The position numbers were made by a program, and so were the translations under genes. From a virus, in IMG/VR virus record IMGVR_UViG_3300034355_000644, positions 5,850-69,849 of that record: DNA of 64,000 nucleotides; one strand, written 5' to 3'. This document shows, one piece after another, positions 1-49,556 of the stretch. The notes under the pieces were generated by a model. It was given only the letters and a program-made list of their open reading frames with translations, searched no databases and had not been told where the DNA came from. Numbering within the stretch: position 1 is the stretch's first letter; every line of letters begins with the position of its first letter.

Positions 1-348
1 TGCAATAACCTCTGCAAGCATTGCATCATTATTCCTTTTTGCCATACCTATTCTTGTAATTAGATCATTGTTGATTCTATCCAATTTAAAATCTAATTGC
101 TTAATAGTAATAGCCATATCATGTCTATTTATTTTATCTGCTATACACCAACTGATGGCTGATGGCATTTTTTTCATAATATGTAACGAAGTACCTAATT
201 TTAAAACTCTATACTCGTTATTGTCAGTAACTATTTCATAACTGCCAAATAGATGGTAGTTTTCGTAATCATCTTTCCATATCAATAAATCTTTAAGATT
301 ATCTAATTCGGATGTGAATATTGTTTTATATTTTTGTTTTTTGTTCAT
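1..348 (-). CDS. hypothetical phage protein, 3'-truncated by window edge
   Basis: Own translation: ATG at 348 overlaps the TGA of the 345..611 ORF; frame MNKKQKYKTIFTSELDNLKDLLIWKDD... stays open to position 1. Confidence 0.65.
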   Translation of the reverse strand, partial: MNKKQKYKTIFTSELDNLKDLLIWKDDYENYHLFGSYEIVTDNNEYRVLKLGTSLHIMKKMPSAISWCIADKINRHDMAITIKQLDFKLDRINNDLITRIGMAKRNNDAMLAEVIA

Positions 349-611
349 TTAGTAGCATAATTTTCTATTAACCATCCTATTACTCCCAAGAGTATAGTGA
401 TGATGCCGACTCCCCATTTCAGATGTTGTTCGTGCCGCTTACGATCTCCGGACATCATTAAGTCATACATTTCCTCTATCGCCACGTCCACTTTATCTAT
501 TTTTGCGGCCATATCATCTAACCTATCTTCCAATGCACTATATCTCCTTGCACATAATTCCACATGAGCTTCTAACGAATGTCTTTCAATACTACTAATC
601 TGATCGGTCAT
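345..611 (-). CDS. small coiled-coil protein with C-terminal transmembrane helix (holin/XhlA-like)
   Basis: Heptad-like N-terminus, hydrophobic WGVGIITILLGVIGWLI, AGGAG RBS, TAAATA box near 654-659. Confidence 0.6.
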   Translation of the reverse strand: MTDQISSIERHSLEAHVELCARRYSALEDRLDDMAAKIDKVDVAIEEMYDLMMSGDRKRHEQHLKWGVGIITILLGVIGWLIENYATK

Positions 612-655
612 AACAATGCTCCTTATGTTGAACGATTCAAAAAATCATATAGTAT

Positions 656-1069
656 TTATCTTTTTTTGAAAAACTGTATGTTAGTAGTATTACCTATTGC
701 GGTGGTCATATTTGCTTGAATTTCGCCATTCTCTGATATTATCAACATAGGAATTGAATTGGAATCTTTGTGGAGTATATCCAATTCTGAGTATTCCGTG
801 TATACAGAATCATTCTCAACAAAAAATTCAAATAACCATTGATCGTTTTGTTTTATCGGAAGATTATCATAAAATACTTGTGTTCTTAACCCCAATATCT
901 GAAGTAATGTTTCAAAATTTCGTTGTTTATTCCTTGATATCAGCCAATCTGATTGATTGGTAATAATAGCACCTGATTGATCTGGAAACGGCAATCGTTC
1001 TGCTTTAAAAAAACCAGTTGTTCCAGTGCAAGTTATATCAAAAGAAGTCTGACAAATAATTGAAATCAT
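656..1069 (-). CDS. hypothetical protein
   Basis: 137-aa ORF directly behind TAAATA box 1077-1082. Confidence 0.7.
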   Translation of the reverse strand: MISIICQTSFDITCTGTTGFFKAERLPFPDQSGAIITNQSDWLISRNKQRNFETLLQILGLRTQVFYDNLPIKQNDQWLFEFFVENDSVYTEYSELDILHKDSNSIPMLIISENGEIQANMTTAIGNTTNIQFFKKR

Positions 1070-1079
1070 TATGACCTAT

Positions 1080-2087
1080 TTACGTCAGATTTTTATCTCT
1101 ATTATTATTCTTCTTAGATAAGCCACCTCTCACCCACCCCTCACCGGGGCATTCTTCTGTTATTTTAAAATTTATACCATTGTTCCATGTCGTTTTTGTC
1201 TTCAGGCCACCCAATTGCCATCCTTCTCCGGGGCATTCTTCTGTTACTTTTTGTTCAATGCCGTTGTTCCACCACTTTTTTCCAAATGTTCCACAATATC
1301 CAACTAATTGCCCCAATTTCCAATCCACGCCTGGACATTCTTTTGCCATTACACACTCTACTCCATTGTTCCACCAACGATATCCTTTGTTGGATGTCAG
1401 CAGAGATCCCTCGAACCAATTTTCATCGGGTTGCTCGTAAGACATTATGCTATCCTTGCCGTTGTTCCACCACTTTAATCCCACGGACGATGGGATTAAT
1501 TCGCCCGATGTATATCTTGGATCATCCACCGATACTTGCATATTATTGCCATCTTTATCTTTTACTGGAACCATTCCTTTGCTGCAATGTACCAATTCAC
1601 CGGATACATATCTTGGATCATCCACTGAAACGGACATGGTGTTGCCATCTTTATCTTTTGCTGAAACCATTCCTTTGCTGTTGTGAATCAATTCGCCCGA
1701 TATATATCTTGGATCATCCACCGATACTTGCATAGTATTGCCATCTTTATCTTTGACCACAACCAATCCTATAGTATTCCACCTCCCTTCGTTGTTGTTC
1801 TTATTAAGCATTTTTGGGTGATTACGCGCATCCAAGCATTGTAATACTCTCGTTTCCCAAGCATAGCACTTGGTCGGGCAATTAAATGTTCTTCTTATTT
1901 CTTTAACATCGGGTTCACCATGCAACTTCCGAAATTCCGTCACGTGTTCAGATGAGGTCCAATAATTCTTCCAAAAAGTATTTGGGTCGGCATCTTTGCC
2001 GTACTTGGAGCCGTAATACCAGATATTAAGATGAGACCATCCGATTAGGTAGGTGTAAAAAATTGGTGCTTGTTTTTTTCTTGCCAT
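1080..2087 (-). CDS. GIY-YIG (Seg-like) homing endonuclease with 3 KDKDG-type and 4 WWNNG-type repeats
   Basis: N-terminal YTY...WYYG...YWTSS...WE...N pattern; C-terminal tandem ~32-aa repeats; GGGAG RBS. Confidence 0.8.
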   Translation of the reverse strand: MARKKQAPIFYTYLIGWSHLNIWYYGSKYGKDADPNTFWKNYWTSSEHVTEFRKLHGEPDVKEIRRTFNCPTKCYAWETRVLQCLDARNHPKMLNKNNNEGRWNTIGLVVVKDKDGNTMQVSVDDPRYISGELIHNSKGMVSAKDKDGNTMSVSVDDPRYVSGELVHCSKGMVPVKDKDGNNMQVSVDDPRYTSGELIPSSVGLKWWNNGKDSIMSYEQPDENWFEGSLLTSNKGYRWWNNGVECVMAKECPGVDWKLGQLVGYCGTFGKKWWNNGIEQKVTEECPGEGWQLGGLKTKTTWNNGINFKITEECPGEGWVRGGLSKKNNNRDKNLT

Positions 2088-2152
2088 GATTTATCTCCCT
2101 TTGATAATGGCAACGCCATATAGAGATATTTCAGGTGTGTTGATGTGTGTAA

Positions 2153-2230
2153 TAAATACATTGCTGATTGCTCCATGATAGCGTTAGAACCAATGGATAT
2201 TTGCAGTATCGCGATTGGTATCTTTATTTA
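2153..2230. ncRNA. conserved two-hairpin element upstream of endonuclease, copy 1
   Basis: Aligns with 4060-4137, 42208-42285 and 49368-49447 with covarying stems; bounded by TAAATA/TATTTA. Confidence 0.75.
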
Positions 2231-2381
2231 TCTCCGATTCATTTATATCGGAATTTAATTCTTCCACTTCTTGTTGAGCTTTGGCTCTTTTAGCTTCATT
2301 TGGGTCATGCTGATTGCTTCCCATAGCACTCATTTGACCACTTTTTGCTTTGTATTGATTGATAAATTCTTTAGCTCTCAT
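2184..2381 (-). CDS. small putative internal head protein (MRAKEFI N-terminus); 3' end runs into the hairpin element
   Basis: TAAATA box just upstream; N-terminus shared with ORFs starting at 39315 and 39764. Confidence 0.55.
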   Translation of the reverse strand: MRAKEFINQYKAKSGQMSAMGSNQHDPNEAKRAKAQQEVEELNSDINESEINKDTNRDTANIHWF

Positions 2382-2398
2382 ATTCGTATTTATCAGAC

Positions 2399-2425
2399 AA
2401 AAAAATCCCGCCGAAGCGGGATTTT
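2399..2425 (-). terminator. intrinsic terminator with UUCG tetraloop
   Basis: Minus strand AAAATCCCGC-TTCG-GCGGGATTTTTTT after 2448..2930. Confidence 0.85.
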
Positions 2426-2447
2426 GTGTATATATCTTAAAGATATA

Positions 2448-2930
2448 TTAGGATGCTAAGGTTGCAGAACTTGCCAATCTGAAGCCAACAGAGAATACGT
2501 CAGTTCCGGTGAAATCATAGCTTGATCCGTTGGGAAGTTGAGCATTACCTAGACCACCAATAAGTGCAGCCAGATTTACCGCTGAATTATCTCCGCCGGT
2601 AGTATCAGTATTGAAAGCTCCCACTGGGAAAGTTGCAAGGCTAAAATTTGTATTTGCAACAGTGTTACTAACTTGATACATAGCCACTGTGGATACTTGT
2701 TGAACTGTTTGTAGTAGCAGTTCAATCGCGCCACCAACACCAGCTTGATTGAAGGGGTTGGTATTACCACCAGAAAGATTCATGCCGAAGAATTCAAGTT
2801 TTGGTCCTTGAAAGTTAACGGGAACGCCAGCTGGTGCATAAGTTACATTTGCTGCAAGTTGTGGACCATTTAATTGATCAACTGCGAAAACAGGTTGTGA
2901 GCCGCCCGAGACGACAGGTATACTAGCCAT
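2448..2930 (-). CDS. probable abundant virion structural protein
   Basis: Gly/Ala/Asn-rich, own TAAATA box (2974-2979), AAGGAG RBS and own terminator. Confidence 0.65.
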   Translation of the reverse strand: MASIPVVSGGSQPVFAVDQLNGPQLAANVTYAPAGVPVNFQGPKLEFFGMNLSGGNTNPFNQAGVGGAIELLLQTVQQVSTVAMYQVSNTVANTNFSLATFPVGAFNTDTTGGDNSAVNLAALIGGLGNAQLPNGSSYDFTGTDVFSVGFRLASSATLAS

Positions 2931-2996
2931 AATAATTTTCTCCTTTAATAATTGGATCTTTTGATCCTAAATGTATTTATCATTTTGTTGAGAAAA

Positions 2997-4004
2997 CTAC
3001 TTTTTAGTATTTTTAATCATGCCCTTGACCCATCCATCTCCTGGATGCTGATACGAGAAAACATTATTTTTTCCATTATTATAACAAGTTTTTCCGGCTG
3101 TGGTTGCTTTGAAATCCCCCAATCTGCCCGGAACCCATCCCTCTCCTGGACAATCTTGCATCATTATACATTCAACTCCATTGTTCCACCAGGTCTGTCC
3201 AGAATTTGTTGTCCCAAGATTCCCTCTAATCCACCCTTCGCCCGGACATTCTTCGCTCATGGTTGATTTAATGCCATTATTCCACCATACTGTATTTTTT
3301 GACGTATGAATAAATTCCCCGGATTTATATCTAGGATCATCTCTGTGAATTCTTGTTTTTGTACCATCGCAATTTTTTACTGGAATAGTATCTATGGAAA
3401 CAGGAATTAATTCTCCGAGTTGATACTCTGAGTTGTGTATATCTACCTGTAAAATTGTTCCATTTTTATCTCGAACAGTAACTTTTCCTTTGTTTACGTG
3501 AGTGAGCTTATTTTTATTTTCTCTATAATAATCAGATGTAACCGTGGTTATTGTTCCGTTATTCGTTATGGTAGTCAATGATAGTGGTTTAATACTTCCA
3601 CCAGACTGTTCGATTTCATTTTTTGTTACCCAACATATCTCGCCCTGTTGATTCGTTGCCGCTCTTCGTGCGGGTAATCCCAATCTTCCTGCGCAACCCT
3701 CTCCTCCGAAGGTCATATTATAACCCCAATTGGACTTGTGGGAATTATTCTCTGTTATAAAGTGAGGTTCCATTACATTAAGCGTGTGGTCCGCATCACG
3801 AGATTGATATAATTCTTCCCACTTAAATGAGTCTTCACCCCATTTTTTAATCGCTCTGTGAAAAATCGCTGTTGTGGAATCACTGTTTGCATCTTTAAGA
3901 TGCCTAAACTTTCTTTTTTTAAAATTACTGGTAAAACCAACGTAGCATTTATTGTTAACAGTATTTGTTACCCTATATATAGTATAAATAGTTTTATTGT
4001 TCAT
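2997..4004 (-). CDS. GIY-YIG homing endonuclease with degenerate KDG-type and WWNNG-type repeats
   Basis: TIYRVTNTVNNKCYVG...R...H...AIKKWG.DSF...E...GYNMT.GGEG canonical GIY-YIG pattern. Confidence 0.88.
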   Translation of the reverse strand: MNNKTIYTIYRVTNTVNNKCYVGFTSNFKKRKFRHLKDANSDSTTAIFHRAIKKWGEDSFKWEELYQSRDADHTLNVMEPHFITENNSHKSNWGYNMTFGGEGCAGRLGLPARRAATNQQGEICWVTKNEIEQSGGSIKPLSLTTITNNGTITTVTSDYYRENKNKLTHVNKGKVTVRDKNGTILQVDIHNSEYQLGELIPVSIDTIPVKNCDGTKTRIHRDDPRYKSGEFIHTSKNTVWWNNGIKSTMSEECPGEGWIRGNLGTTNSGQTWWNNGVECIMMQDCPGEGWVPGRLGDFKATTAGKTCYNNGKNNVFSYQHPGDGWVKGMIKNTKK

Positions 4005-4059
4005 GATTTCCTCCTTGTTGAATTCACGCAGAGGATTTTTAACAGAAATAATAAATTGC

Positions 4060-4137
4060 TAAATATTATTACTGATGTCGTCCTCCGACGTTAGAACCAA
4101 TGGGTGTTTGCATCACCGCGATTGGTATCCTTATTTA
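4060..4137. ncRNA. conserved two-hairpin element upstream of endonuclease, copy 2
   Basis: Inner stem GGTG/CACC replaces GATA/TATC of copy 1; same 78-bp span. Confidence 0.75.
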
Positions 4138-4141
4138 TCTT

Positions 4142-5968
4142 TTAGTTCTTATTGAATAATTTGTTACCATGCGAGAACACGAATCTGTCTACCAGTTTTA
4201 CTCTGCCGTCCGGTGAATTCAATACCCATCCCTCATGACCGGGGTGTTGTCTATCTAATTGGAGTAATGATTCCATTTTTAATTCATGCAATAATAAAAA
4301 TATTTCAAATACTGCTTTAAGCGCGTCTCCGTTTGATGAAGGGCTATCTAAGTATTCGTTTATTCTTTTATATTTCAATGCGCCAACATTTCCCTCAATC
4401 CACTCTAAAAATCCATTTAGCAAATCATCAAAATTACTGCTTATACGAGAATTGATAAATCGCTTACACAGTTGAGGCAAGTCTGTTATTTTTTGAGATC
4501 GTAGCTCAGATGGATCAAATAACAAATCAATATCATCACCATGCTCTTTTAGCAATTTCTTTATTTCACCAATTATTTCCTTGCTTACCTTGAAGTTATT
4601 CCCTGATTCAAAGTCTGATGGGAACATCAGCAATAAACCCGGTGATTTTTTATGTTTTAACTCAGTTAGTGGCTCATCGCCAGATTCTTTGTGTTTAATC
4701 AGAGTATGAAGAGCTACACCGACCTCACTATCTGTAATCTTGGTTCCAAGGTCACTATTAACAGGAATCTTGTACTCTATAAAATTTGGCCTAAATGTAT
4801 ATGCGCCTTTTATTTCTTTTGGCTTAGATGAATACATCAGATCACCCTTGATGAATCCCCTAAAGCCTTTTGGCAAAGCTGAATCTAATAACGGAAATAA
4901 TTTATCATATATGTCAATCAATTCTTCTCTTCCAGGACCACGCGCATTGAGAATATCTCTCATTTGTTCTGATGTTTCCGCTAATCCATCGTATGTTTTA
5001 GCAGTGAATCCAGATTTGTCTGTGAGAATAAATTTACCCTTATCGTTTCTACCAAATACTATACAAGGTTTGCCGTCTATTTTGGTACTGATTGATTCAT
5101 CTCCATTCTCAGAAGAATATTTCATTATTCTAAGGGCTTCTTTTACTCCCTTTGATCCCCTTTCAAATACCAAATCCTCTAAGTGTTCTATTCTTGCATT
5201 ATTCTCAAGTAATGGCTGATATCCTTTGTGAACGATTCTATCTCGGAGTCTTGCCATATAGTGAATTTCCGGTTCATAGTAATCATCAATAAACGGAATA
5301 CCTTCTTTGTTTAGGTGTTGTGTGAATAATTCTATTTTTCTTGTTCGCTCTTTGTCTTTTGCCAACATCCTCAGTAATCGTTCTACTGTGCCCATATCTG
5401 CGCTTCTTGCGCTTGGTCCAAAGAATTTAACAGTAATGTCATTGACATCATTACTCACCGCTTTTTTCGTGTTTATGTCGTATAATCCTTGAAGTGGGTT
5501 TATTTTTTGACCCATAGTGTATGCAATTGAATTCAGTAGAATATTTCTTTCTCTACATTTATAGATACTTTCTTCTTGTAATCGCATCATGTATCTACTA
5601 AACTCAACATTCTTAACTGGATATAAGTTAACTTGAACGAATCCTCTTGATGGTGTTCCTACAATGGGGCACTTGAAGCAAACAGTATCATTTACTTTTT
5701 TCACGAAGTTATTAGGATTGAAGTCATAGCTTCTTGCCCAATTGATGAATCCTTCTAATAACTTGTTGGGTGATGATTTTGCCTGATCATATACTACATC
5801 AATATTTGAGCAATTCGGAGATATAGGTGCGCTTCCAACAATGTTGTCAATTAAATCTAAATGAGGTTGCATCATGCCCAACCAAGCAATAGTGGGTCTA
5901 CAATCGGTTTGATTGATTCTTTGTGTCAGTAATTTTCCTTTTGAATCAACAAAAACGAATTTCGTCAT
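4142..5968 (-). CDS. two-domain phage protein; C-terminal half with ligase-like KxDG motif (DUF6267-like)
   Basis: IEHLEDLV...STKIDGKPCIVFG...KGDLMY...EGWV...VKLVDR resembles nucleotidyltransferase motifs I-V. Confidence 0.55.
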   Translation of the reverse strand: MTKFVFVDSKGKLLTQRINQTDCRPTIAWLGMMQPHLDLIDNIVGSAPISPNCSNIDVVYDQAKSSPNKLLEGFINWARSYDFNPNNFVKKVNDTVCFKCPIVGTPSRGFVQVNLYPVKNVEFSRYMMRLQEESIYKCRERNILLNSIAYTMGQKINPLQGLYDINTKKAVSNDVNDITVKFFGPSARSADMGTVERLLRMLAKDKERTRKIELFTQHLNKEGIPFIDDYYEPEIHYMARLRDRIVHKGYQPLLENNARIEHLEDLVFERGSKGVKEALRIMKYSSENGDESISTKIDGKPCIVFGRNDKGKFILTDKSGFTAKTYDGLAETSEQMRDILNARGPGREELIDIYDKLFPLLDSALPKGFRGFIKGDLMYSSKPKEIKGAYTFRPNFIEYKIPVNSDLGTKITDSEVGVALHTLIKHKESGDEPLTELKHKKSPGLLLMFPSDFESGNNFKVSKEIIGEIKKLLKEHGDDIDLLFDPSELRSQKITDLPQLCKRFINSRISSNFDDLLNGFLEWIEGNVGALKYKRINEYLDSPSSNGDALKAVFEIFLLLHELKMESLLQLDRQHPGHEGWVLNSPDGRVKLVDRFVFSHGNKLFNKN

Positions 5969-6789
5969 GATATTTTAAATCCGTGTTTTGTCAGCAATCT
6001 GTCAGCTTCTTCGTTGCCGGTTGAATTAACAACTTCATCGTTGCCCTCAATTTTATCGTATTCTCTTTCTTTTGATCTTTTTGTGTGATTGTTCAGCGTT
6101 TGTGAAGCAAGGCTGGCTTGTCGGATTAAATCAACGAATAATTTATATTCTTTGGTCATGGTCCCCGAGGCATCTTCCATAACAGAACTGCTATAGAAAT
6201 CATCCTCTTTGTCAAGGAATGCTTGAAGTTCTTCGGGCGCTATCGCTTGAGTCTTGGCATTGATCCATTCTCCTTTAGAGTTAACCATATAATCTCTATT
6301 GCCATAACGAATAATCTTAGGCTCACCCGATATTAACTTAGTGCCGCTTGGACTGCTATGAAGAACATTTTTTGTCCTTGGCGATGTTGGGTTAGCTTGA
6401 TTTTGATTTGATTTCTTATACTTTGAAATCTGATTATTCATAATTTTATCAATAATCACCATAATGTCATCGCCATTAACAAATGATTGAATATGATTTC
6501 TGTTTAAGAAGTTTATTTCAACGAAGTTGATCAATTGCTTTCGCATCACGCCAGAAGAACCATTCAGGTATCTTGCTCTTTCTGCCTTATCACGGAAGTT
6601 ATTGGCATATTTCTTTTTAAAGTTGTTCCAAAAATTATACGCTTTCGTTGCCTTGTTGTGCTCAGAAGCAGATGATAATAACCCTCGGCCAGCACGATCC
6701 TTTTTCGTTTTTTTATAGATATCCAACAGACCTTCGTCAAGGATTTTAGTTTTTTTAGGATTTGGTTGTGTTATCTGATAAATTAGCAT
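5965..6789 (-). CDS. hypothetical protein (possible internal head protein)
   Basis: 274-aa ORF overlapping neighbours; ILDE motif near N-terminus. Confidence 0.65.
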   Translation of the reverse strand: MLIYQITQPNPKKTKILDEGLLDIYKKTKKDRAGRGLLSSASEHNKATKAYNFWNNFKKKYANNFRDKAERARYLNGSSGVMRKQLINFVEINFLNRNHIQSFVNGDDIMVIIDKIMNNQISKYKKSNQNQANPTSPRTKNVLHSSPSGTKLISGEPKIIRYGNRDYMVNSKGEWINAKTQAIAPEELQAFLDKEDDFYSSSVMEDASGTMTKEYKLFVDLIRQASLASQTLNNHTKRSKEREYDKIEGNDEVVNSTGNEEADRLLTKHGFKIS

Positions 6790-9490: not shown

Positions 9491-10645
9491 TCAACGATAG
9501 TACATGTTCTCAATATATCCAGTAGTGATAAGAACGATAGCGCCCGTTTTACCGGGCGGAACAGGATACACTTGGCCGTTATAGGAGATAATAGGAACCG
9601 GCCAATAGCCAGAACCAGGATTAGTTATAGTGATGCCAGTAACGGTGCCAGTAACAGTATCAATGGTAGCCTCTGCTGTTGCACCAGAACCATCGCCAAC
9701 CAAATCAACTCTTGGTGGAGCCAAATAGCCAGCGCCACCATTCTGAAGCAATATATCCACCACATGTCCATCTTCGCATACTGCATAAGCAATGGCCGGT
9801 TGCGCTGGTTGCTTTGGAGTAGAAAATAGACTATTGTTAAACGCCATTCTAAGGAGAGGAAACCATCCTTCTATGTTCCAATGTATAGTGCCATAATGAT
9901 TATAAAATGTTCTACTCTCGGTGATGTTATACCAAATGCTCTCATAGGTTTCTGCCCACTGAGCTTTAATCGTTCCTGTATATCCAATCAATGATAGTTG
10001 AACTGTAGTCAATGAATTAGCTGGTGCGATGTGGCTGGAGAAGTATTCAGTATTCATCCAACTATTGAAGTATGCGCTATCACCACCCCAATATTGTCCG
10101 GCCCAATTTGGATAATTTTCAAAACTTGAACCGCCGTAAGAATACTGGCTGGATAGTTCTAAGGTGGGAAGAGTGAGCGGACGACTTGGAACAAATTCCG
10201 GGAACACTGAATCCACGATATCCAATGGCGCTCTCGCACCCGCATACGAATCGGTAAAAACCGGCTCAACGAGATTGCCCGAGTGTCGTTGAATTGAATA
10301 ATACGCTGGTTGGGCAATAAGTTCTAATAATTCTTCGCGAGTGAACGTAACCTTAAATCTGCCACATCCGGGATTCAGAATAACCATTTCTTTTTCAAGA
10401 AGGATTCTATCACCGGCAGTATTCATAACTCGGAATACGAAATTGCTGCCACTGATATTCACCGGCTTTTCTTGCTGGTTGATAGCTTGGAACAGAAGGA
10501 CATTGTCCACGCCGAGATTTATATTGAGTCTTTTTGCATACATGGGATTTTCAAACCGATAAGTGAACGTGAACCCATCACCAGTATTGATAACGAGAAC
10601 TTTGGTAAATTGGTGATAAACATAACATTGGGTACTGTAAGCCAT
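9491..10645 (-). CDS. probable virion structural protein
   Basis: C-terminal NGGAGY..PP.V...GDGSGATAEA...ITNPGSGY beta-repeat typical of myophage baseplate/fibre proteins; late box at 10650-10655. Confidence 0.6.
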   Translation of the reverse strand: MAYSTQCYVYHQFTKVLVINTGDGFTFTYRFENPMYAKRLNINLGVDNVLLFQAINQQEKPVNISGSNFVFRVMNTAGDRILLEKEMVILNPGCGRFKVTFTREELLELIAQPAYYSIQRHSGNLVEPVFTDSYAGARAPLDIVDSVFPEFVPSRPLTLPTLELSSQYSYGGSSFENYPNWAGQYWGGDSAYFNSWMNTEYFSSHIAPANSLTTVQLSLIGYTGTIKAQWAETYESIWYNITESRTFYNHYGTIHWNIEGWFPLLRMAFNNSLFSTPKQPAQPAIAYAVCEDGHVVDILLQNGGAGYLAPPRVDLVGDGSGATAEATIDTVTGTVTGITITNPGSGYWPVPIISYNGQVYPVPPGKTGAIVLITTGYIENMYYR

Positions 10646-28476: not shown

Positions 28477-29373
28477 CTAAATTTGTTTTTCATAATAATA
28501 ATCTTTATTGTCAACATTTTGTGATTTTACTCTACTTTTAATGGTTCTTGGGTCTATTCCCAATGCCCTAGCAGCGATTGCAATACTACTGAACCATCCC
28601 TTTGGAGTGTGAACTCTTATAGAATTATGTGATACTGATCGTGTGTCATCAATGTCAATATTCATCACACATACTTGTTCATGTTTTGTTACATTACTAA
28701 TCCCAAACAAATTACTGCAAAATTTACAAGGAACTTTTTGCTGTTTTGTTCCGATCTTTGCCCTAGATATGTTATTGGAGTGCGAGGAGGTTCTCTCTCT
28801 ACCTGTTAGTGCTTTGGATACTTTACGTCTATTCACCTCGTTGTGCATGGGATTATTTTCGCCCCTAATATTGGGTTTTGGTATTCCCGATAAGGCTAAA
28901 CTTATTTTAGCAGCATTTTCGGGCTTTTTATTGGGGTGATTGATGCCCGATATAGTTGGTCGTTTCTGTCCCTTTTGTGGGTGCTCTTTATCTCCCAGTT
29001 TAGCTGTCCAATGATTTTTTCCACTCGTCACAGACTTTTGACGTTTTACAACATCTGGATCTTTCATTGGATTTTTATCCCCAACCCACACGGATATGCC
29101 GTCATTGTTGTGCTTATTGAAGCTATTTGTATCATTCTTTGCATCTAGTATGCGAAGTATCCTCGTCTCTAATTCCAATACCTCATTGACATCTCCCATA
29201 AACAATATAATTCTTACCCATTCACTTCGCGTGTCAATAGTCAATAATTTATTAACAATCTTGCTGGATGTAATATACCCATCATCTGGGTGACAGCCTT
29301 TCGCTGTTCGTGACCCTATATACCAACGCTGCGTTGATAAATGAATCCAAACATAAACGAAAGGCTTGTGCAT
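28477..29373 (-). CDS. GIY-YIG (Seg-like) homing endonuclease with NUMOD3-like repeats
   Basis: FVYVW...WYIGSR...YITSS...LE...FNKHN; GDKNPM/GENNPM repeats; C-terminal HTH (F.SI..AARALGI). Confidence 0.85.
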   Translation of the reverse strand: MHKPFVYVWIHLSTQRWYIGSRTAKGCHPDDGYITSSKIVNKLLTIDTRSEWVRIILFMGDVNEVLELETRILRILDAKNDTNSFNKHNNDGISVWVGDKNPMKDPDVVKRQKSVTSGKNHWTAKLGDKEHPQKGQKRPTISGINHPNKKPENAAKISLALSGIPKPNIRGENNPMHNEVNRRKVSKALTGRERTSSHSNNISRAKIGTKQQKVPCKFCSNLFGISNVTKHEQVCVMNIDIDDTRSVSHNSIRVHTPKGWFSSIAIAARALGIDPRTIKSRVKSQNVDNKDYYYEKQI

Positions 29374-40784: not shown

Positions 40785-42140
40785 CTATGCATATTTTAGA
40801 TTATCTTTTGATAGCATGATGGCATTATCATCTTTATCTTTATCTTTAACTTTGATTCTTCCTTTTGACAGACTGATCAACTCACCCGATACATATCTTG
40901 GATCATCTTTTGATACTCTCATAGTATTTCCATGTTTGTCTCTAACCGGAACCGTTCCTTTATTGACAGAGACCAATTCACCCGATACATATCTTGGATC
41001 ATCTTTTGATACTCTCATAGTATTTCCATATTTGTCCCTTACACTCACTCTGCCTTTTTCTACATTCACCAACTCACCAGATACATATCTTGGATCATCT
41101 TTTGATACTTGCATAGTGTTGCCATCTTTGTCATATACTCTAACTTTCCCTTCATGTACACTAACGAGTTCTCCAGATAAAAATCTAGGATCATCTTTCG
41201 ACACCGATGTTGTATTACCATTCTTATCTATCACCGGAACCATTCCTTTTGTGTTATGGACCAATTCACCGGATAAATATCGCGGATCATCCACTGATAC
41301 TTGCATAGTATTACCATCTTTATCTCGCACAACTACTTTCCCGCAAGCAATACCAACTAATTCACCAGACACATATCTTGGATCATCTACTGATACTTGC
41401 ATAGTATTGCCATCTTTGTCTTTTACGACAACCCTTCCGGTAAATATATGGACCAATTCACCAGATAAATATCGCGGATCATCCACTGATACTTGCATAG
41501 TATTACCATCTTTATCTCGCACAACTACTTTCCCGCAAGCAATACCAATCAATTCGCCCGACACATATCTTGGATCATCTACTGATACTTGCATAATATT
41601 TTCTTCTTTGTCTTTTACTACTATAATTCCAGTGTTCGTGCCAATCAATTCGCCCGACACATATCTTGGATCATCCACTGATACTTGCATAGTATTGCCA
41701 TCTTTGTCTTTTACTGATGCCATACCAGAGGCTATCCCAATCAATTCACCAGACACACGTCTTGGATCATCAACGGACACAAATGATATGTTGCCGACTT
41801 TATCTTTTACAGCAATCATCCCATCAGCACGGAATCTCTCATTAGCATCAGTTGCATTTAACCACATAGGACTGCGTCGACATCCCATACGTTTATGGAC
41901 TTTACTTTCCCATTCCACTGTTTTTTTGGGACAATTAAACATTCTTCGTATTTGAATTACATTGGGTTCGCCGTGTAGTTCTCGAAATTTTTTCACGTGC
42001 CTGCTGGAAGTCCAATAATTCTTCCAAAAAGTATTCGGGTCGGAGTCTTGTCCGTACTTGGAGCCGTAATACCAGATACTAAGATGAGACCATCCGATTA
42101 GGTAGGTGTAAAAAATTGGTGCTTGTTTTTTAGTTGCCAT
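40785..42140 (-). CDS. GIY-YIG (Seg-like) endonuclease with ten full and one partial 32-aa KDKDG repeats
   Basis: N-terminus nearly identical to 1080..2087; 96-bp periodicity (GGATC at 41284, 41380, 41476). Confidence 0.82.
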   Translation of the reverse strand: MATKKQAPIFYTYLIGWSHLSIWYYGSKYGQDSDPNTFWKNYWTSSRHVKKFRELHGEPNVIQIRRMFNCPKKTVEWESKVHKRMGCRRSPMWLNATDANERFRADGMIAVKDKVGNISFVSVDDPRRVSGELIGIASGMASVKDKDGNTMQVSVDDPRYVSGELIGTNTGIIVVKDKEENIMQVSVDDPRYVSGELIGIACGKVVVRDKDGNTMQVSVDDPRYLSGELVHIFTGRVVVKDKDGNTMQVSVDDPRYVSGELVGIACGKVVVRDKDGNTMQVSVDDPRYLSGELVHNTKGMVPVIDKNGNTTSVSKDDPRFLSGELVSVHEGKVRVYDKDGNTMQVSKDDPRYVSGELVNVEKGRVSVRDKYGNTMRVSKDDPRYVSGELVSVNKGTVPVRDKHGNTMRVSKDDPRYVSGELISLSKGRIKVKDKDKDDNAIMLSKDNLKYA

Positions 42141-42207
42141 TGAAGTTTTCCTTTATTGGTTATGACAACGCCAATAGGAGAATTTTTAGGTTCACTGACC
42201 TGTATAA

Positions 42208-42285
42208 TAAATATCATTGCTGATTGCTCCTTATAAGCGTTAGAACCGATGGATACGCCAATATCGCGATCGGTACTTTTATTTA
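42208..42285. ncRNA. conserved two-hairpin element upstream of endonuclease, copy 3
   Basis: Outer stem ACCGAT/ATCGGT vs ACCAAT/ATTGGT in copies 1-2; 78-bp span. Confidence 0.75.
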
Positions 42286-42305
42286 TCAAATAAAAATCAA
42301 CACGT

Positions 42306-45918: not shown

Positions 45919-47190
45919 TTATGTCACTACTTCAGTGACTAACTCCATCCCTCCAGAAACTATTGATTTATCAATAGACCTCTCGGTTTTAATACTGAAT
46001 TTCTTTAGAGTCGTTGGGATTTTTCTTCCCATTTCGCCGAGGGCCGACGAAGATATTGTTGATCCGTATAAATCTACTTGACCAACTCGTTTTATATTAA
46101 TTGCAGCATTTACATCTCTATCATGGCTTGTTCTACAAACAGGACAATCCCATTCGCGAACATTCAAGAGAAGAACTTCAAGTTTATGATTACAACAAGA
46201 ACATGTTTTTGATGTGGGTGTAAAACGATTTATCTTATAGAATGTTTTGCCAAACCAATTTGCCTTATACTCAATCATTGAAGCTAGTGTAGACCAGGCA
46301 GAATCTTGAATAACTCGTGATAGTTTTCTATTCTTCAACATACCCGATACATTTAAATCTTCCATGAATATTGAATCATAATTTTCTATTAGCCATGTAC
46401 TCACGCAATGATAATAATCATTGCGTTGTCTGGTATATTTTGAGTATTTCCTCGCTAACTGCATTCTCGCTTTTTCTCTGTTGTTGCTCCCCTTACTCTT
46501 TCTTGCGAGCTTTTTTTGTAAATGCTTGATTTGTTGCTTGGTTTTTGTCAACAATATCAAATCTTTTGGATTTCTAAATTTATCACCATCACTGGTAATA
46601 AATAAATCCATAATTCCTAAATCAATTCCGATCTCGCGACCAGTCATTGATCTTAATTCTTGTTCCACTTCAGCCAACACAGATACATAATATCTACCAT
46701 CTTTATCAAGAGATATTGTAGCACTTTTTATTTTGCCGTCAATTTCTCTGTCAATAATCGCTTTTACGTATCCCAATTTTGGTAAATGTATCTTGTTATT
46801 ATTTATGCGAATTACATTGTTGTTATTTGGCGTCCGATAGCTTTGTCTTGCATATTTGCTTTTAAATTTTGGTGCGTTTACTTTTTTGCCTTTTCTTTTA
46901 CCATTAATTGCCTTAAAGAAATTACTATATGCTTCCGATAAATCTTTGGCCGCTTGTTGTAGTGCTTGACTATCCACGTCAGCTAAAAAAGTTGCATCTT
47001 CTTTTTTCCACTCCACCAACAGGTTGTTCATTTGAAAATGAGTTAAGTGGTGTTCCTTTGATTTATATCTTTGCAATTGAGTATTGAGAAGGTTATTAAA
47101 CACATATCTTTTACACCCAAATGTCTTCGACATCAATTCTCTTTGAATGATGGTCGGGTAGATTCTGTATTTGAATGATTTAAATATCAC
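45919..47190 (-). mobile_element. tnpB: TnpB RNA-guided endonuclease (IS200/IS605 OrfB), no TnpA nearby
   Basis: FKYRIYPT...FGC.RYVFN HTH; RuvC GIDLG, MEDL, HDRD.NAA.NI; CSCC/CPVC Zn ribbon; likely GTG start 47190. Confidence 0.92.
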
Positions 47191-47365
47191 TATCTCGGTA
47201 TACTCTATTATAATGATTCGTATATACTTGTAACACACTGACCAATTGATTGTAAATATCTGCGTTGCCAGAACGAGCTATGGCAATCAATCTATTTTGT
47301 AATTGATAGATTTTACTCTCAACTTCTTCTTTTGTCAATGATTCCAACTTTACCAATGGATTCAT
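47180..47365 (-). CDS. small hypothetical protein coupled to tnpB
   Basis: 61-aa helical ORF behind TAAATA (47372-47377), overlapping tnpB start. Confidence 0.6.
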   Translation of the reverse strand: MNPLVKLESLTKEEVESKIYQLQNRLIAIARSGNADIYNQLVSVLQVYTNHYNRVYRDSDI

Positions 47366-48493: not shown

Positions 48494-49381
48494 CTAAACC
48501 CAACCTTCTGGTTCTTTTCCTGGTACAAACATTTTAGTATTTGACCCATCGGTAAATGCTCTCAATTTAGTTTTCGTCAAATGTCCTTCAACCCATCCTT
48601 CTGGTTGTTCTCCGGGAAAACAAATAGTCGTCTTAATTCCGTTGTTGTATGCTTTTTTGCCTTTCGATGAAGGGGGTTTTGTACCAAGTTCTCTGTGAAT
48701 TATTGATTGTTTCTTTTTTGTTTCTTCAGATGCAGTAGTACCAAAACTGTTATGCACCCATTCGCCCGATAAAACTTTAGGATGATTAGTTTCGACTAAT
48801 CCAATCGTTTCTCCAGTAATTAGATTTTTGACAATCATTTTTCCTTTTTTATGAGCATATCTTTCTTCTTTGTCTTCTTTGGTCAACGAATCATAATGAA
48901 TTCGTTGACTTTTACTCATTTTACTTTTGGTTTCTTCTGTTACTTCTTTGCCGTATCTTCCATTTAACTTTCCTGGTCTAGATTTTTTTGCATTTATTAC
49001 GGCTTTTTCATCATCAGATAAACTGTTCCACTTATCTTTCGCCAACTGTACATAGTAATCCATATTTGCTTGAATATGTTCAAATCCACCATCTCCCTTT
49101 TCTTCTTTTAAATTCGCCCATATTTTTTTGCCATTTTCATCAACTGCATGCATTATATTCCAGAATCTACTCATGAATTGTCCCTTGCTCTTTATTTCAT
49201 CATAATCGGAGGTGGACAATATTATTGTGGTATGAATTTCTTTTCCGTGTTTGTTTAGATGCTTCTTCCAGTAAACACCAGACCCAAGATATTTAATAGG
49301 ATCTTTCCTACGTGTGTAACATAGATATTTTAATTTCGTTTTTAGGTGAGTTTTCACCATCAGGTGATAAATATGTGTCAT
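48494..49381 (-). CDS. GIY-YIG-like homing endonuclease with NUMOD3 and YNNG repeats
   Basis: IYHLMVKTH..T.LKYLC....P.KY.GSG.YW..HL.KHG...WANLK.E.GDGG; EETKSKMS; YNNG...PEGWV. Confidence 0.8.
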   Translation of the reverse strand: MTHIYHLMVKTHLKTKLKYLCYTRRKDPIKYLGSGVYWKKHLNKHGKEIHTTIILSTSDYDEIKSKGQFMSRFWNIMHAVDENGKKIWANLKEEKGDGGFEHIQANMDYYVQLAKDKWNSLSDDEKAVINAKKSRPGKLNGRYGKEVTEETKSKMSKSQRIHYDSLTKEDKEERYAHKKGKMIVKNLITGETIGLVETNHPKVLSGEWVHNSFGTTASEETKKKQSIIHRELGTKPPSSKGKKAYNNGIKTTICFPGEQPEGWVEGHLTKTKLRAFTDGSNTKMFVPGKEPEGWV

Positions 49382-49447
49382 GCTGATACTCCATTATAGT
49401 ATTAGAACCGATGGAGACTGCAATCTCGTGATCGGTACTTTTATTTA
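49368..49447. ncRNA. conserved two-hairpin element, copy 4, overlapping endonuclease start codon
   Basis: Inner stem GAGA/TCTC, second stem TACT/AGTA enclosing GGAG; 80-bp span. Confidence 0.75.
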
Positions 49448-49453
49448 CCAATC

Positions 49454-49500
49454 TTATTGATTACATTATAAATTCCTTGTGAGTAGTTCTTTTTTGCCAT
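49454..49500. repeat. 47-bp direct repeat, orphan gp4 5' end (mini-ORF MAKKNYSQGIYNVINKIGK*)
   Basis: Identical to 48315-48361; has own TAAATA at 49505-49510. Confidence 0.92.
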
Positions 49501-49556
49501 GTTGTATTTATCGGTTTTGATAAATACTTGATATCATAGCCAAGGATTTAATATCA

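Follow-up and report, generated by a model that had tools for sequence, protein, structure and literature searches.

Cassette copies and nuclease genes in the window

The window, by which we mean the whole 64,000-nucleotide stretch of DNA that was analysed, carries five nuclease genes of GIY-YIG or GIY-YIG-like type on its minus strand, and four of them are headed by a cassette of about 80 bases. The host phages are uncultured T4-like myoviruses, and the nuclease genes are free-standing homing endonuclease genes. The copies, named c1 to c4, lie on the minus strand at 2232-2151, 4139-4058, 42287-42206 and 49449-49366. An earlier note, made from the letters alone, had described a two-hairpin element at the head of four of five GIY-YIG genes; all four copies were confirmed where it had placed them. 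The fifth gene (28477-29373, minus) abuts its upstream ORF, carries no copy and serves as a negative control within the window. A covariance model built from 10 copies (R1) scored the four at 85-99 bits (E 3e-15 to 3.5e-18) and, with filters off, gave no further copy at E <1 in the 64-kb window. The antisense covariance model (R2) scored the same four at 82-100 bits and gave nothing beyond them at E <0.5. The CRC/C internal loop is kept in 4/4 copies, as is the GGAG of hairpin 2, and in all four the fold fits the plus strand.

Cassette c1 (2151-2232) scores 91.9 bits with R2 (E 7e-19) and 94.1 bits with R1 on the minus strand. Its forward late-type box, GATAAATA, is at 2225-2232 (minus), and transcription is predicted to start (+1) with the opening base of hairpin 1. 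An antisense-facing late-type box, ATAAATA, is at 2152-2158 (plus); read on the minus strand it is the TATTTAT directly after a relic ATG. From this second box, an antisense RNA starting with GCUGAU is predicted at 2163-2231 (plus). It would contain hairpin A (2164-2187), with CUCC within and adjoining the loop, and hairpin B (2189-2219), followed by a U-rich tail. The minimum free energy (MFE) is -13.0 kcal/mol for the antisense RNA and -9.9 kcal/mol for the sense span. The nuclease of c1, Type B and GIY-YIG-like (1080-2087, minus), has its own Shine-Dalgarno sequence (SD) and ATG about 65 nt past the element, and a short ORF from the element's ATG (2161) overlaps its start.

The other copies have the same layout. 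Cassette c2 (4058-4139; R2 82.6 bits) has lost the element's ATG. Its antisense box CTAAATA is at 4059-4065 (plus) and its forward box at 4132-4139 (minus), and the predicted antisense RNA (4071-4138, plus) has a modelled energy of -21.7 kcal/mol (z -3.33). The Type C nuclease behind it (2997-4004, minus; Pfam GIY-YIG) begins at its own start 60 nt past the element. Cassette c3 (42206-42287; R2 99.8 bits) has an antisense box at 42207-42213, a forward box at 42280-42287 (minus) and a predicted antisense RNA at 42219-42286 (plus). It precedes a second Type B nuclease (40785-42140, minus), 54% identical to that of c1, whose C-terminal part is repeat-rich. In cassette c4 (49366-49449; R2 81.8 bits), the antisense box GATAAATA (49366-49373, plus) stands 8 nt from GCUGAU, the usual distance being 5, and 49442-49449 (minus) hold the forward box GGTAAATA. 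For its antisense RNA, the predicted span is from about 49379-49382 to 49448 (plus; -16.9 kcal/mol, z -2.66), and one stem pair that reads A·C in the sense direction becomes U·G when read as antisense. The Type A nuclease of c4 (NUMOD3; 48494-49381, minus) takes the element's ATG (49381) as its start codon and the GGAG of hairpin 2 as its SD; its first codons are overlain by the antisense box.

The GGAG had been called Shine-Dalgarno-like. It is indeed the SD of the element's own ATG, which is the true nuclease start in c4 and in most copies on outside contigs; in c1-c3 this ATG is merely a relic or the start of a short upstream ORF. The statement that the element is shared by three nuclease subtypes also holds. 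The c2 enzyme has only a C-terminal part in common with those of c1 and c3, and the c4 enzyme matched none of the other three at E 1e-4, with Pfam and PHROG rows also compared. A programmed -1 frameshift at A_AAA_AAC in c1 and c3, which would fuse the short upstream ORF with the Type B nuclease, was considered and rejected. The frame of the upstream ORF differs between homologues and the ATG is missing in c2 and at an outside locus (L015), so there is no conserved fusion product.

Covariation, strand of the fold and facing boxes

In the 10-copy alignment, 96.7% of cells were paired, 8/21 pairs changed on both sides, and the covariation score was reached in 0/500 shuffles. Among 107 distinct copies from outside contigs, 13/14 pairs changed on both sides, with 300 double-change cells vs 66 after shuffling. 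This indicates that the compensatory stem changes described in the earlier note are real. The large alignments were fitted to models, and most outside copies were retrieved with patterns fixing TAAATA, CRCG, TCTAAY and ATCAGY, so part of the invariance of these letters there follows from the retrieval; neither the stems nor the TATTTA box was constrained.

The earlier note had read the fold on the nuclease strand. On that strand, the stem cells outside Watson-Crick pairing were A·C or C·A in 47 cases, G·U or U·G in 8 and other in 3 among the 107 copies. In another set of 80 distinct copies, 75 of them new, the counts were A·C 30, G·U 3 and other 12, and the two sets pooled gave 77, 11 and 15. 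The sense mismatches are thus nearly all A·C, so that they are G·U wobbles only on the antisense strand. When read as antisense, 98.9% of 1922 cells pair over 18 pairs, of which 14 change on both sides. Further pair types numbered 43 vs 32±1.8 in shuffles on the antisense strand (0/500) and 30 vs 30.1 on the sense strand (310/500). The 5-bp helix CUGAU/GUUAG pairs in 187/187 rows on the antisense strand only, with an AT to TA swap in seven cells; on the sense strand one of its pairs is A·C in 187/187 rows and another is C·A in 114/187. The antisense MFE was the lower one in 180/192 copies (mean -15.8 vs -11.4 kcal/mol) and in all four window copies. Single-sequence thermodynamics are weak in some copies (antisense z -0.35 in c1 and -1.21 in c3), and RNAfold favours another fold for c3. 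On the mismatches, the antisense-only helix and the better antisense fold, the nuclease-strand reading is probably wrong, and the fold fits the opposite strand.

The TAAATA and TATTTA that bound the cassette read as two T4-late-type promoter boxes (N-A/C-TAAATA) facing one another about 70 bp apart. TATTTA lay within 20 nt of ATCAGY in 170/192 copies, vs 9/192 with shuffled tails, and it was found in all three reading frames. In 104 ORFs beginning M-x-I-Y, codon 2 ended in T in 103 (background third-position T, 33%), the Ile codon was ATT in 101 (background 40%) and the Tyr codon was TAT in 93 (background 69%). The TATTTA in codons 2-4 is therefore kept by selection at synonymous sites, a result obtained on the outside copies. 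Since TATTTA occurs in three frames, at synonymous sites and on HNH genes, the idea that it is a mere by-product of GIY codons was rejected.

The distances are also constrained. The forward box (NATAAATA) is separated by 5 nt from the hairpin 1 G in 99/107 copies, and the antisense box stands equally far from the G of GCUGAU in 79/107. In T4, the late box is placed at -13 to -6 (PMC1524935). Of the minus-strand ATAAATA boxes in the window, 19/23 are intergenic and directly upstream of ORF starts, while long ORFs occupy all but about 12% of the window; late-type boxes precede the tail sheath gene and other virion genes. These positions suggest that the late-type box acts as a promoter motif in this phage, and by the same token both boxes of the cassette would fire. 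A sigma-70 scan of 1-6000 gave no excess (24 vs 24.1 expected). Positions 3-10 past hairpin B are mostly U. A simple terminator scan, with a tool that requires an unbroken stem, did not flag hairpin B.

The wider family and exchange of nuclease cassettes

A relaxed pattern search of IMG/VR gave at least 192 distinct copies. A third batch of 30 loci (L340-L369) was examined by regular expression only, and a looser pattern, GGTTCTAA...ATCAG...TATTTA, gave mostly chance matches and zero new real copies. An ATG stood within 10 nt of the element in 180/193 copies, and 149 of these opened an ORF of at least 100 aa or one that ran off the locus. Among 141 downstream ORFs, 80 matched phrog_314 and 50 phrog_655, both annotated as homing endonuclease. 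The Pfam matches included NUMOD3 (42), HNH (16), HNH_3 (14) and HNH_5 (8), and the 15 Pfam families matched by these ORFs included none of Vsr type. BLAST single-linkage of the 141 proteins merged nearly all of them owing to common DNA-binding modules, and families could not usefully be counted from it. The data show that most genes opened by the cassette encode homing endonucleases, both GIY-YIG and HNH, and that the cassette is neither GIY-YIG-specific nor local. Its sharing between unrelated nuclease types, as first proposed, thus extends to HNH enzymes.

No Rfam 15 family matched anywhere in the window at gathering score, which agrees with the view that the element belongs to no named family; searches of c1 and c4 at E up to 10 gave chance-level snoRNA matches only (6.6-15.4 bits). 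A 5-kb flank had no megablast match among GenBank phages. The dominant copy (96 nt) had no blastn match at E 1e-3 and was absent from cultured-phage records at that sensitivity.

The cassettes come and go between close relatives. A contig 93-99% identical to the window (G005) is without the c1 cassette, has another nuclease at the c2 locus and carries an extra HNH cassette elsewhere. The c1 indel (1098-2388, minus) spans the element, its nuclease and an ORF of 65 aa; G005, which is 96-99% identical there, does not have it, and the junction is GATAAA|AATCTG. At the c2 locus, G005 has a Type B nuclease instead of the Type C one, and the 5' crossover falls within the element's GGTTCTAACG. The HNH cassette of G005 interrupts a host gene after its codon 10 and brings a recoded N-terminus; by Pfam its ORF has no HNH domain, and in PHROGs it matches phrog_1035, endonuclease VII. 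The 3' ends of the cassettes carry no copy of the element. Presence and absence, the swap and one crossover within the element indirectly support the proposal that the element mobilises nuclease cassettes. The earlier note had spoken of an RNA or ssDNA module that controls or mobilises them. A structured, covarying, portable and nuclease-tied module is what was found, and the strand first assigned to it is probably the wrong one.

This shuffling recalls the PeSL cassettes of T4-type phages, a conserved promoter with a stem-loop bordering variable genes (PMC2839356, PMC4122927). Both accompany insertion, deletion and replacement between close relatives. However, PeSLs, by their description in these papers, are early-promoter/terminator composites beside novel ORFs generally, whereas the boxes here are late-type, fused to nuclease start codons only, and the fold is antisense.

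A predicted antisense RNA and the competing explanations

Homing endonucleases are among the commonest selfish genes in large phages. To our knowledge, how phages tolerate many of them is known from few T-even cases, all with sense-strand hairpins. In this study, we believe, with somewhat more confidence than doubt, that the cassette is a portable unit of expression and restraint whose brake is a predicted cis-antisense RNA of about 67 nt resembling RNA-OUT of IS10. The forward box would give a nuclease mRNA starting at the conserved G that is the first base of hairpin 1, followed by the SD AAGGAG and the ATG. The second box, embedded in codons 2-4 (ATG-NNT-ATT-TAT), would give an opposite-strand RNA of about 65-70 nt from another conserved G. 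Its predicted order is 5'-G-CUGAU, hairpin A, whose loop and adjoining bases hold the anti-SD CUCC, a single A, hairpin B carrying two bulged G, and a U-rich tail. This tail, the complement of the purine run and the forward box, resembles an intrinsic terminator, and the RNA would probably end there. Its complementarity to the nuclease mRNA would be complete over the first ~65 nt, as far as the base preceding the AUG. It may then block ribosome binding and/or trigger decay, as RNA-OUT does on RNA-IN of IS10, and the facing promoters may interfere with each other. In c1-c3, the nuclease start lies ~60-65 nt further on, and the antisense RNA would cover only the relic start or a short upstream ORF. 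As the covered ATG is not the nuclease start in these three copies and in 26/193 outside copies, a direct block of translation does not follow there.

IS10/Tn10 offers the closest model. RNA-OUT is described as a folded antisense RNA of ~69 nt, complementary to the translation initiation region, which blocks ribosome binding (PMC5006887). As in that account, a promoter, here a putative one recognised by its sequence, lies within the 5' end of the coding region of a selfish DNA-cutting enzyme and faces the gene's own promoter. The RNA predicted here is likewise folded, about 67 nt long, and spans the SD to the base before the AUG. Unlike IS10, the cassette has T4-late-type boxes where the IS10 promoters are described as sigma-70, it belongs to a homing endonuclease of a lytic phage and not to a transposon, and it has two hairpins vs one long hairpin in the published description. 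There is no sequence or model similarity between the two and no Rfam match. An antisense RNA of ~225 nt, CfrI, has been described in the cyanophage S-PM2, where it links psbA to an endonuclease gene (PMC2984593). As far as that description goes, it too is an antisense RNA of a T4-like phage overlapping a homing endonuclease gene, the one here being predicted. The R1 model gave no cassette match in the whole S-PM2 record (best E 2.9, 17.8 bits).

More tentatively, and with the balance slightly against it, the cassettes may form a large unnamed family of ~67-nt cis-antisense RNAs that is the common governor of nucleases in uncultured T4-like and jumbo myoviruses, possibly acting in trans as well. 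The module's four fixed codons (M-x-I-Y) would have been grafted onto unrelated enzymes. The 5' hairpin and its flanks are near-identical between cassettes, so the RNAs could target all nuclease mRNAs of the genome in trans. Such action would be the phage counterpart of the multicopy inhibition of IS10.

Of the other explanations, a T4-type leader on the sense strand survives best, although we regard it as unlikely. Since Watson-Crick pairs fold on both strands, the cassette has room for such a role. In read-through transcripts, TAAATA and TATTTA would pair and the ribosome site would be masked, hairpins 1 and 2 serving as the scaffold; transcripts from the late promoter would begin at hairpin 1 and escape the mask, and hairpin 1 would also shield their 5' end. 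Late promoters within hairpins are the published layout for I-TevI, I-TevII, I-TevIII, segB and mobE of T-even phages and Aeh1 (PMC2988022). The likeness to these masks, as described there, includes a late box directly upstream of the endonuclease gene, which was found here too, RNA structure at the ribosome site and a nuclease kept low or late. The boxes are exact complements, RNAfold draws the outer stem in 3/4 window copies, and hairpin 1 begins at the predicted +1 in the same 99/107 copies; the initiation region is also slightly more open in the 'late' form (0.53 vs 0.45 unpaired). However, the median predicted probability of the outer stem is 0.02, exceeding 0.5 in only 23% of 161 copies. 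The free N of NATAAATA does not covary, being paired in 67/125 cases vs 62.6 expected, with 427/2000 permutations as high. The first model, in which the outer stem was the translational mask, was dropped on these two results. Moreover, the sense strand has A·C and not G·U mismatches, its fold is weaker in 180/192 copies, and hairpin 2 is there only 3 bp long. A T4-type sense structure sequestering the ribosome site was thus not found, on outer-stem probability, covariation and mismatches, which fit the antisense strand. In addition, the T-even and Aeh1 masks are, in the published description, on the sense strand and in need of sequence that precedes the late start; in the present cassette the fold under selection is antisense, pairing of promoter with anti-promoter is unsupported, and hundreds of nuclease genes, unrelated to one another, have one conserved module in common.

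An earlier sighting of the family may exist. Dassa et al. 2009 (PMC2677866) described free-standing GIY-YIG (and Vsr-like) endonucleases of uncultured phages, 15/16 with a hairpin upstream of the start and 10 of 16 with a TATAAATA box. Their hairpins may belong to the same family, although they are interpreted there as translational hairpins on the sense strand.

A little less likely still is an action at the level of DNA, in which the hairpins would work in plus-strand ssDNA, or the element as portable homology, to provide a recombination or insertion joint for swaps. The c1 presence and absence, the c2 swap and the crossover in GGTTCTAACG between contigs 93-99% identical fit this idea, as does the HNH cassette that carries a copy and entered after codon 10 of its host gene with a recoded N-terminus. 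DNA hairpins likewise tolerate G·T, and PeSL cassettes are a precedent for promoter-stem-loop motifs mediating shuffling, as they are described (PMC2839356, PMC4122927). However, plain homology needs neither covarying stems, conserved G·U, nor boxes 5 nt from a conserved G; the module always stands at a translation start with SD and ATG, and the cassette 3' ends lack a copy.

It is improbable that the conserved unpaired letters are the binding site of a trans-acting protein or the catalytic core of a small self-cleaving RNA: an invariant G-C pair of hairpin 1/B does have bulged letters on its flanks, the linker letters do not vary even among copies that only the model detected, and the family is widespread in phage metagenomes, but most of the 'unpaired' letters (UCUAAC and AUCAGC) pair mutually on the antisense strand, which removes much of the need for another reason, and no Rfam ribozyme or other family matched at E up to 10. 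The core motifs of the hammerhead and other known ribozymes misfit by eye, and a pseudoknot between the hairpin-1 loop and AUCAGC had no consistent register across copies by eye. Strand-biased mutation could in principle contribute to the wobble asymmetry between the strands.

The contigs of one freshwater metatranscriptome matched the window at 2470-2951 and 5737-5887 only, with 95-99% likeness. None of these contigs spans a copy, and contigs are a form of data from which strand and ends are not readable.

One portable cassette combines a promoter, a ribosome site, the first four codons and an apparent antisense brake, and on hundreds of contigs from uncultured phages it heads genes for enzymes of the GIY-YIG and HNH kinds. 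If the antisense reading is true, new nuclease genes would arrive pre-regulated and hence be replaceable at one locus. This would be the first dedicated antisense control described for homing endonucleases and a new, abundant phage RNA family for Rfam. The cassette is also a sharp annotation marker of true nuclease start codons, and it could serve engineers as a compact module for late-phase expression and damping. Protein, promoter and RNA fold would overlap in the same 12 bases, a clean case of multi-layer coding.

Cassette copies and downstream genes

The earlier note placed four copies of an approximately 80-bp element on the minus strand, ahead of four of five GIY-YIG genes. All four were found at those places (c1, 2232-2151; c2, 4139-4058; c3, 42287-42206; c4, 49449-49366), and the fifth GIY-YIG-like gene (28477-29373) carries no copy. 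The covariance model R1, built on the nuclease (sense) strand from ten copies, the four in the window and six from other viral contigs, gave c1-c4 scores of 85-99 bits and, run without filters, no further window copy below E 1. The three nuclease subtypes claimed were also recovered on the minus strand: c1 (1080-2087) and c3 (40785-42140) head Type B nucleases of 54% identity, c2 a Type C nuclease with a Pfam GIY-YIG match (2997-4004), and c4 a Type A nuclease with NUMOD3 (48494-49381). No Rfam family matched the element, whether by gathering score or with E relaxed to 10.

In c4, the ATG within 'TCAGCATG' is the start codon of the nuclease, the GGAG of hairpin 2 is its Shine-Dalgarno sequence, and TATTTA lies within the first codons. 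In c1 and c3, the element's ATG begins only a short ORF, which overlaps the true start approximately 65 nt downstream and whose reading frame varies among homologous copies. In c2, the element's ATG is lost. The ~65-nt Type B spacer (2090-2160 and 42145-42205) has counterparts in outside loci L005, L006, L007, L012, and L131. It is like the first codons of Type A (IYL...LKYL) with a deletion, and a small palindrome, TGGCGTTGCCA, is conserved within it. The short ORF of Type B loci always ends past the nuclease ATG, and a hok/mok-like coupling is possible. In the c3 and c1 nucleases, the C-terminal part (40785-41800 and 1500-1760, minus strand) consists of many tandem repeats of ~32 aa, with phrog_12434 matched at 10 stretches in that of c3; the c2 nuclease has this repeat part in common with them but not the catalytic domain. 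Immediately upstream of c4 (49438-49527) lies a truncated GIY-YIG-like start (MAKKNYSQGIYNVINKIGK), whose stop is inside the c4 forward box, the late-type TAAATA before hairpin 1. This stub carries a GATAAATA box of its own at 49511 (minus) and a back-to-back box at 49520 (plus), and looks like an older nuclease gene truncated when the c4 cassette arrived.

The cassette is real, abundant, and as yet unnamed. Two relaxed patterns matched at least 118 stretches of IMG/VR in one case and at least 120 in the other; among the matches listed, R1 gave 121 across the first 100 loci and 113 across the following 100. A regular expression yielded at least 193 distinct cores from 369 loci. Among the matches listed, an ATG stood within 10 nt of ATCAGY in 180 of 193 distinct cores; 149 of these 180 began an ORF that was 100 aa or longer or ran off the locus, and in 26 cores the ATG began a short ORF. 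In Pfam and PHROG searches, the 141 complete downstream ORFs among the matches listed hit phrog_314 (80) and phrog_655 (50), both annotated 'homing endonuclease', NUMOD3 (42), HNH (16), HNH_3 (14), HNH_5 (8), GIY-YIG (5), and a TnsA-like endonuclease (1). The proposed nuclease link holds for homing endonucleases, but it is not exclusive to GIY-YIG, as HNH types are headed too. Whole-record searches of seven related contigs gave five divergent copies whose hairpin-1 stems are completely different; one heads an HNH (endonuclease VII-like) gene. The dominant copy had no blastn match in GenBank phages. Pattern matches in 185,579 prokaryote genomes came from ten contigs (L372-L381), mostly labelled MAG and the rest from bin-derived assemblies. 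Their labels span unrelated phyla (Methanosarcinales, Haliscomenobacter, Geobacteraceae, Pyrinomonadaceae, Erysipelotrichaceae, and others), and they are most likely misbinned phage contigs.

Covariation and the folding strand

The covariation described for the stems was confirmed in 107 distinct outside copies: 96.6% of cells were paired, 13 of 14 pairs varied on both sides, and double-change cells numbered 300 against 66 in shuffles. The nuclease-strand fold was not upheld. In strand tests whose alignments were fitted to the models, and whose loci were mostly picked by patterns fixing TAAATA, CRCG, TCTAAY, and ATCAGY with stems and TATTTA free, the mismatches, an extra helix, pair types, and stability favoured the antisense (plus) strand. 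Read on the sense strand, the non-Watson-Crick stem cells of the first set were 47 A·C, 8 G·U, and 3 other, and those of a second set (80 distinct rows, 75 new) were 30, 3, and 12; a sense A·C mismatch is a G·U wobble on the antisense strand. There, the conserved and supposedly unpaired UCUAAC and AUCAGC form a CUGAU/GUUAG helix in 187/187 rows. On the sense strand, one pair of this helix is A·C in 187/187 rows and another is C·A in 114/187. A compensatory AT to TA swap occurred in seven cells of the helix, in copies not forced by the patterns. The antisense model, R2, had 98.9% of cells paired over 18 pairs. Antisense pair types numbered 43 versus 32±1.8 in shuffles, with 0/500 shuffles reaching 43, and sense pair types 30 versus 30.1 (310/500). 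The antisense span had the lower folding energy in 180/192 copies (mean -15.8 versus -11.4 kcal/mol for sense) and in all four of c1-c4; taken singly, the c1 and c3 sequences fold weakly.

Flanking boxes and the predicted antisense RNA

A TAAATA/TATTTA stem that hides the gene start in transcripts reading through, the arrangement of I-TevI, segB, and mobE (PMC2988022), failed two tests: the free N of NATAAATA showed no covariation with its would-be partner (67/125 paired versus 62.6 expected) and the median predicted probability of the stem was 0.02. TATTTA was present in 170/192 copies, against 9/192 with shuffled tails, and occurred in all three reading frames. In 104 M-x-I-Y genes, T ended codon 2 in 103 (background 33%), Ile was ATT in 101 (40%), and Tyr was TAT in 93 (69%). 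Nucleotide-level selection acts on TATTTA. Read on the opposite strand, TATTTA(T) is (A)TAAATA. Of the minus-strand ATAAATA sites in the window, 19 of 23 are intergenic, directly upstream of ORF starts. Plus-strand sites stand ahead of plus-strand gene blocks, and boxes precede the tail sheath and other virion genes. Judged by this placement, ATAAATA appears to behave as a promoter motif in the window. In T4, the late box occupies positions -13 to -6, with A or C at -12 in related phages (PMC1524935). A conserved G follows 5 nt past the forward box in 99/107 copies and 5 nt past the antisense box, the TATTTA just past the element's ATG, in 79/107; in c4, the antisense-box spacing is atypical. 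A second antisense-facing TATAAATA box lies at 3984-3991 (+), in codons 5-7 of the c2 nuclease and 75 nt from the antisense box of the relic c2 element.

We believe that cis-antisense control in a new form is the most likely mechanism of the element. Two late-type promoters would stand face to face. From the forward promoter, the nuclease mRNA would begin at hairpin 1, and the opposing promoter would give a predicted ~67-nt RNA beginning at GCUGAU. In this RNA, hairpin A, which contains the anti-SD, would be followed by a single A, by hairpin B, in which two G are bulged, and by a tail rich in U. The RNA would complement the mRNA leader as far as the base before AUG and may act in the manner of IS10 RNA-OUT on RNA-IN (PMC5006887). 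RNA-OUT and the predicted RNA have no similarity. In c1-c3, the ATG that the predicted RNA would cover is not the nuclease start. Contigs of the single metatranscriptome run that matched the window cover 2470-2951 and 5737-5887 and none of the four copies. The earlier interpretation, a structured module controlling or mobilising nucleases, was partly borne out: the covarying, nuclease-linked element stood, the folding strand probably did not. For the c1 antisense RNA, the predicted 3' end is followed directly by a terminator-like hairpin at 2233-2252 (plus), which has a T-rich tail; terminator-like sites in the scan overall showed no excess over shuffles.

The literature on antisense control of homing endonucleases yielded CfrI and general reviews only. 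CfrI of S-PM2 is the only reported antisense RNA over a T4-like phage endonuclease gene (PMC2984593), and it is not a member of the cassette family. Dassa et al. (2009) described conserved hairpins with TATAAATA before metagenomic free-standing endonucleases, reported two complementary motifs in the leaders, and interpreted them as sense hairpins (PMC2677866), whereas the cassette fold fits the antisense strand. Those hairpins may be of the same family.

Cassette gain, loss, and swap

The source contig is a 69.8-kb IMG/VR virus with a CheckV completeness of 20%, and the window spans its bases 5850-69849. The gene content of the window is that of a myovirus (tail sheath, terminase large subunit, virion proteins, and helicases), and cyanomyoviruses and other marine phages encode distant relatives of one window protein. 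A 439-aa ORF at 45919-47238 (-) matched transposase families of PHROG (phrog_506, E 3e-122); such cargo is unusual in a lytic-type myovirus.

Across shared parts, the window and a near-identical contig (G005) are 93-99% identical. G005 lacks 1098-2388, comprising a 65-aa ORF, element c1, and its nuclease, with the junction GATAAA|AATCTG. The 65-aa ORF (2184-2381, minus) has its own GATAAATA box, and runs across the c1 forward box and then hairpin 1, terminating at the TAA of TTCTAA; no Pfam or PHROG match was obtained for it. G005 carries an extra 871-bp HNH (endonuclease VII-like) cassette with a copy at its head (L132:1462-2332). It interrupts the homologue of window ORF 9491-10645 past codon 10 (window 10616-10645), and the old start of that host gene survives as a stub of 10 codons. 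At the end of the cassette stand a new GATAAATA box and, for the host gene, a recoded N-terminus (MYATQCYVY versus MAYSTQCYVY). From this arrangement, it looks like a classic homing insertion whose target is protected. At the c2 locus, G005 has a Type B nuclease instead of Type C, and its sequence equals c2 through hairpin 1 and 'GGTTCTAACG' and is c1-like beyond. A metatranscriptome contig is 95-99% like the window over 2726-2951 and then continues with unlike sequence, and its breakpoint at 2951 is the same boundary as that of the nuclease swap between G005 and the window.
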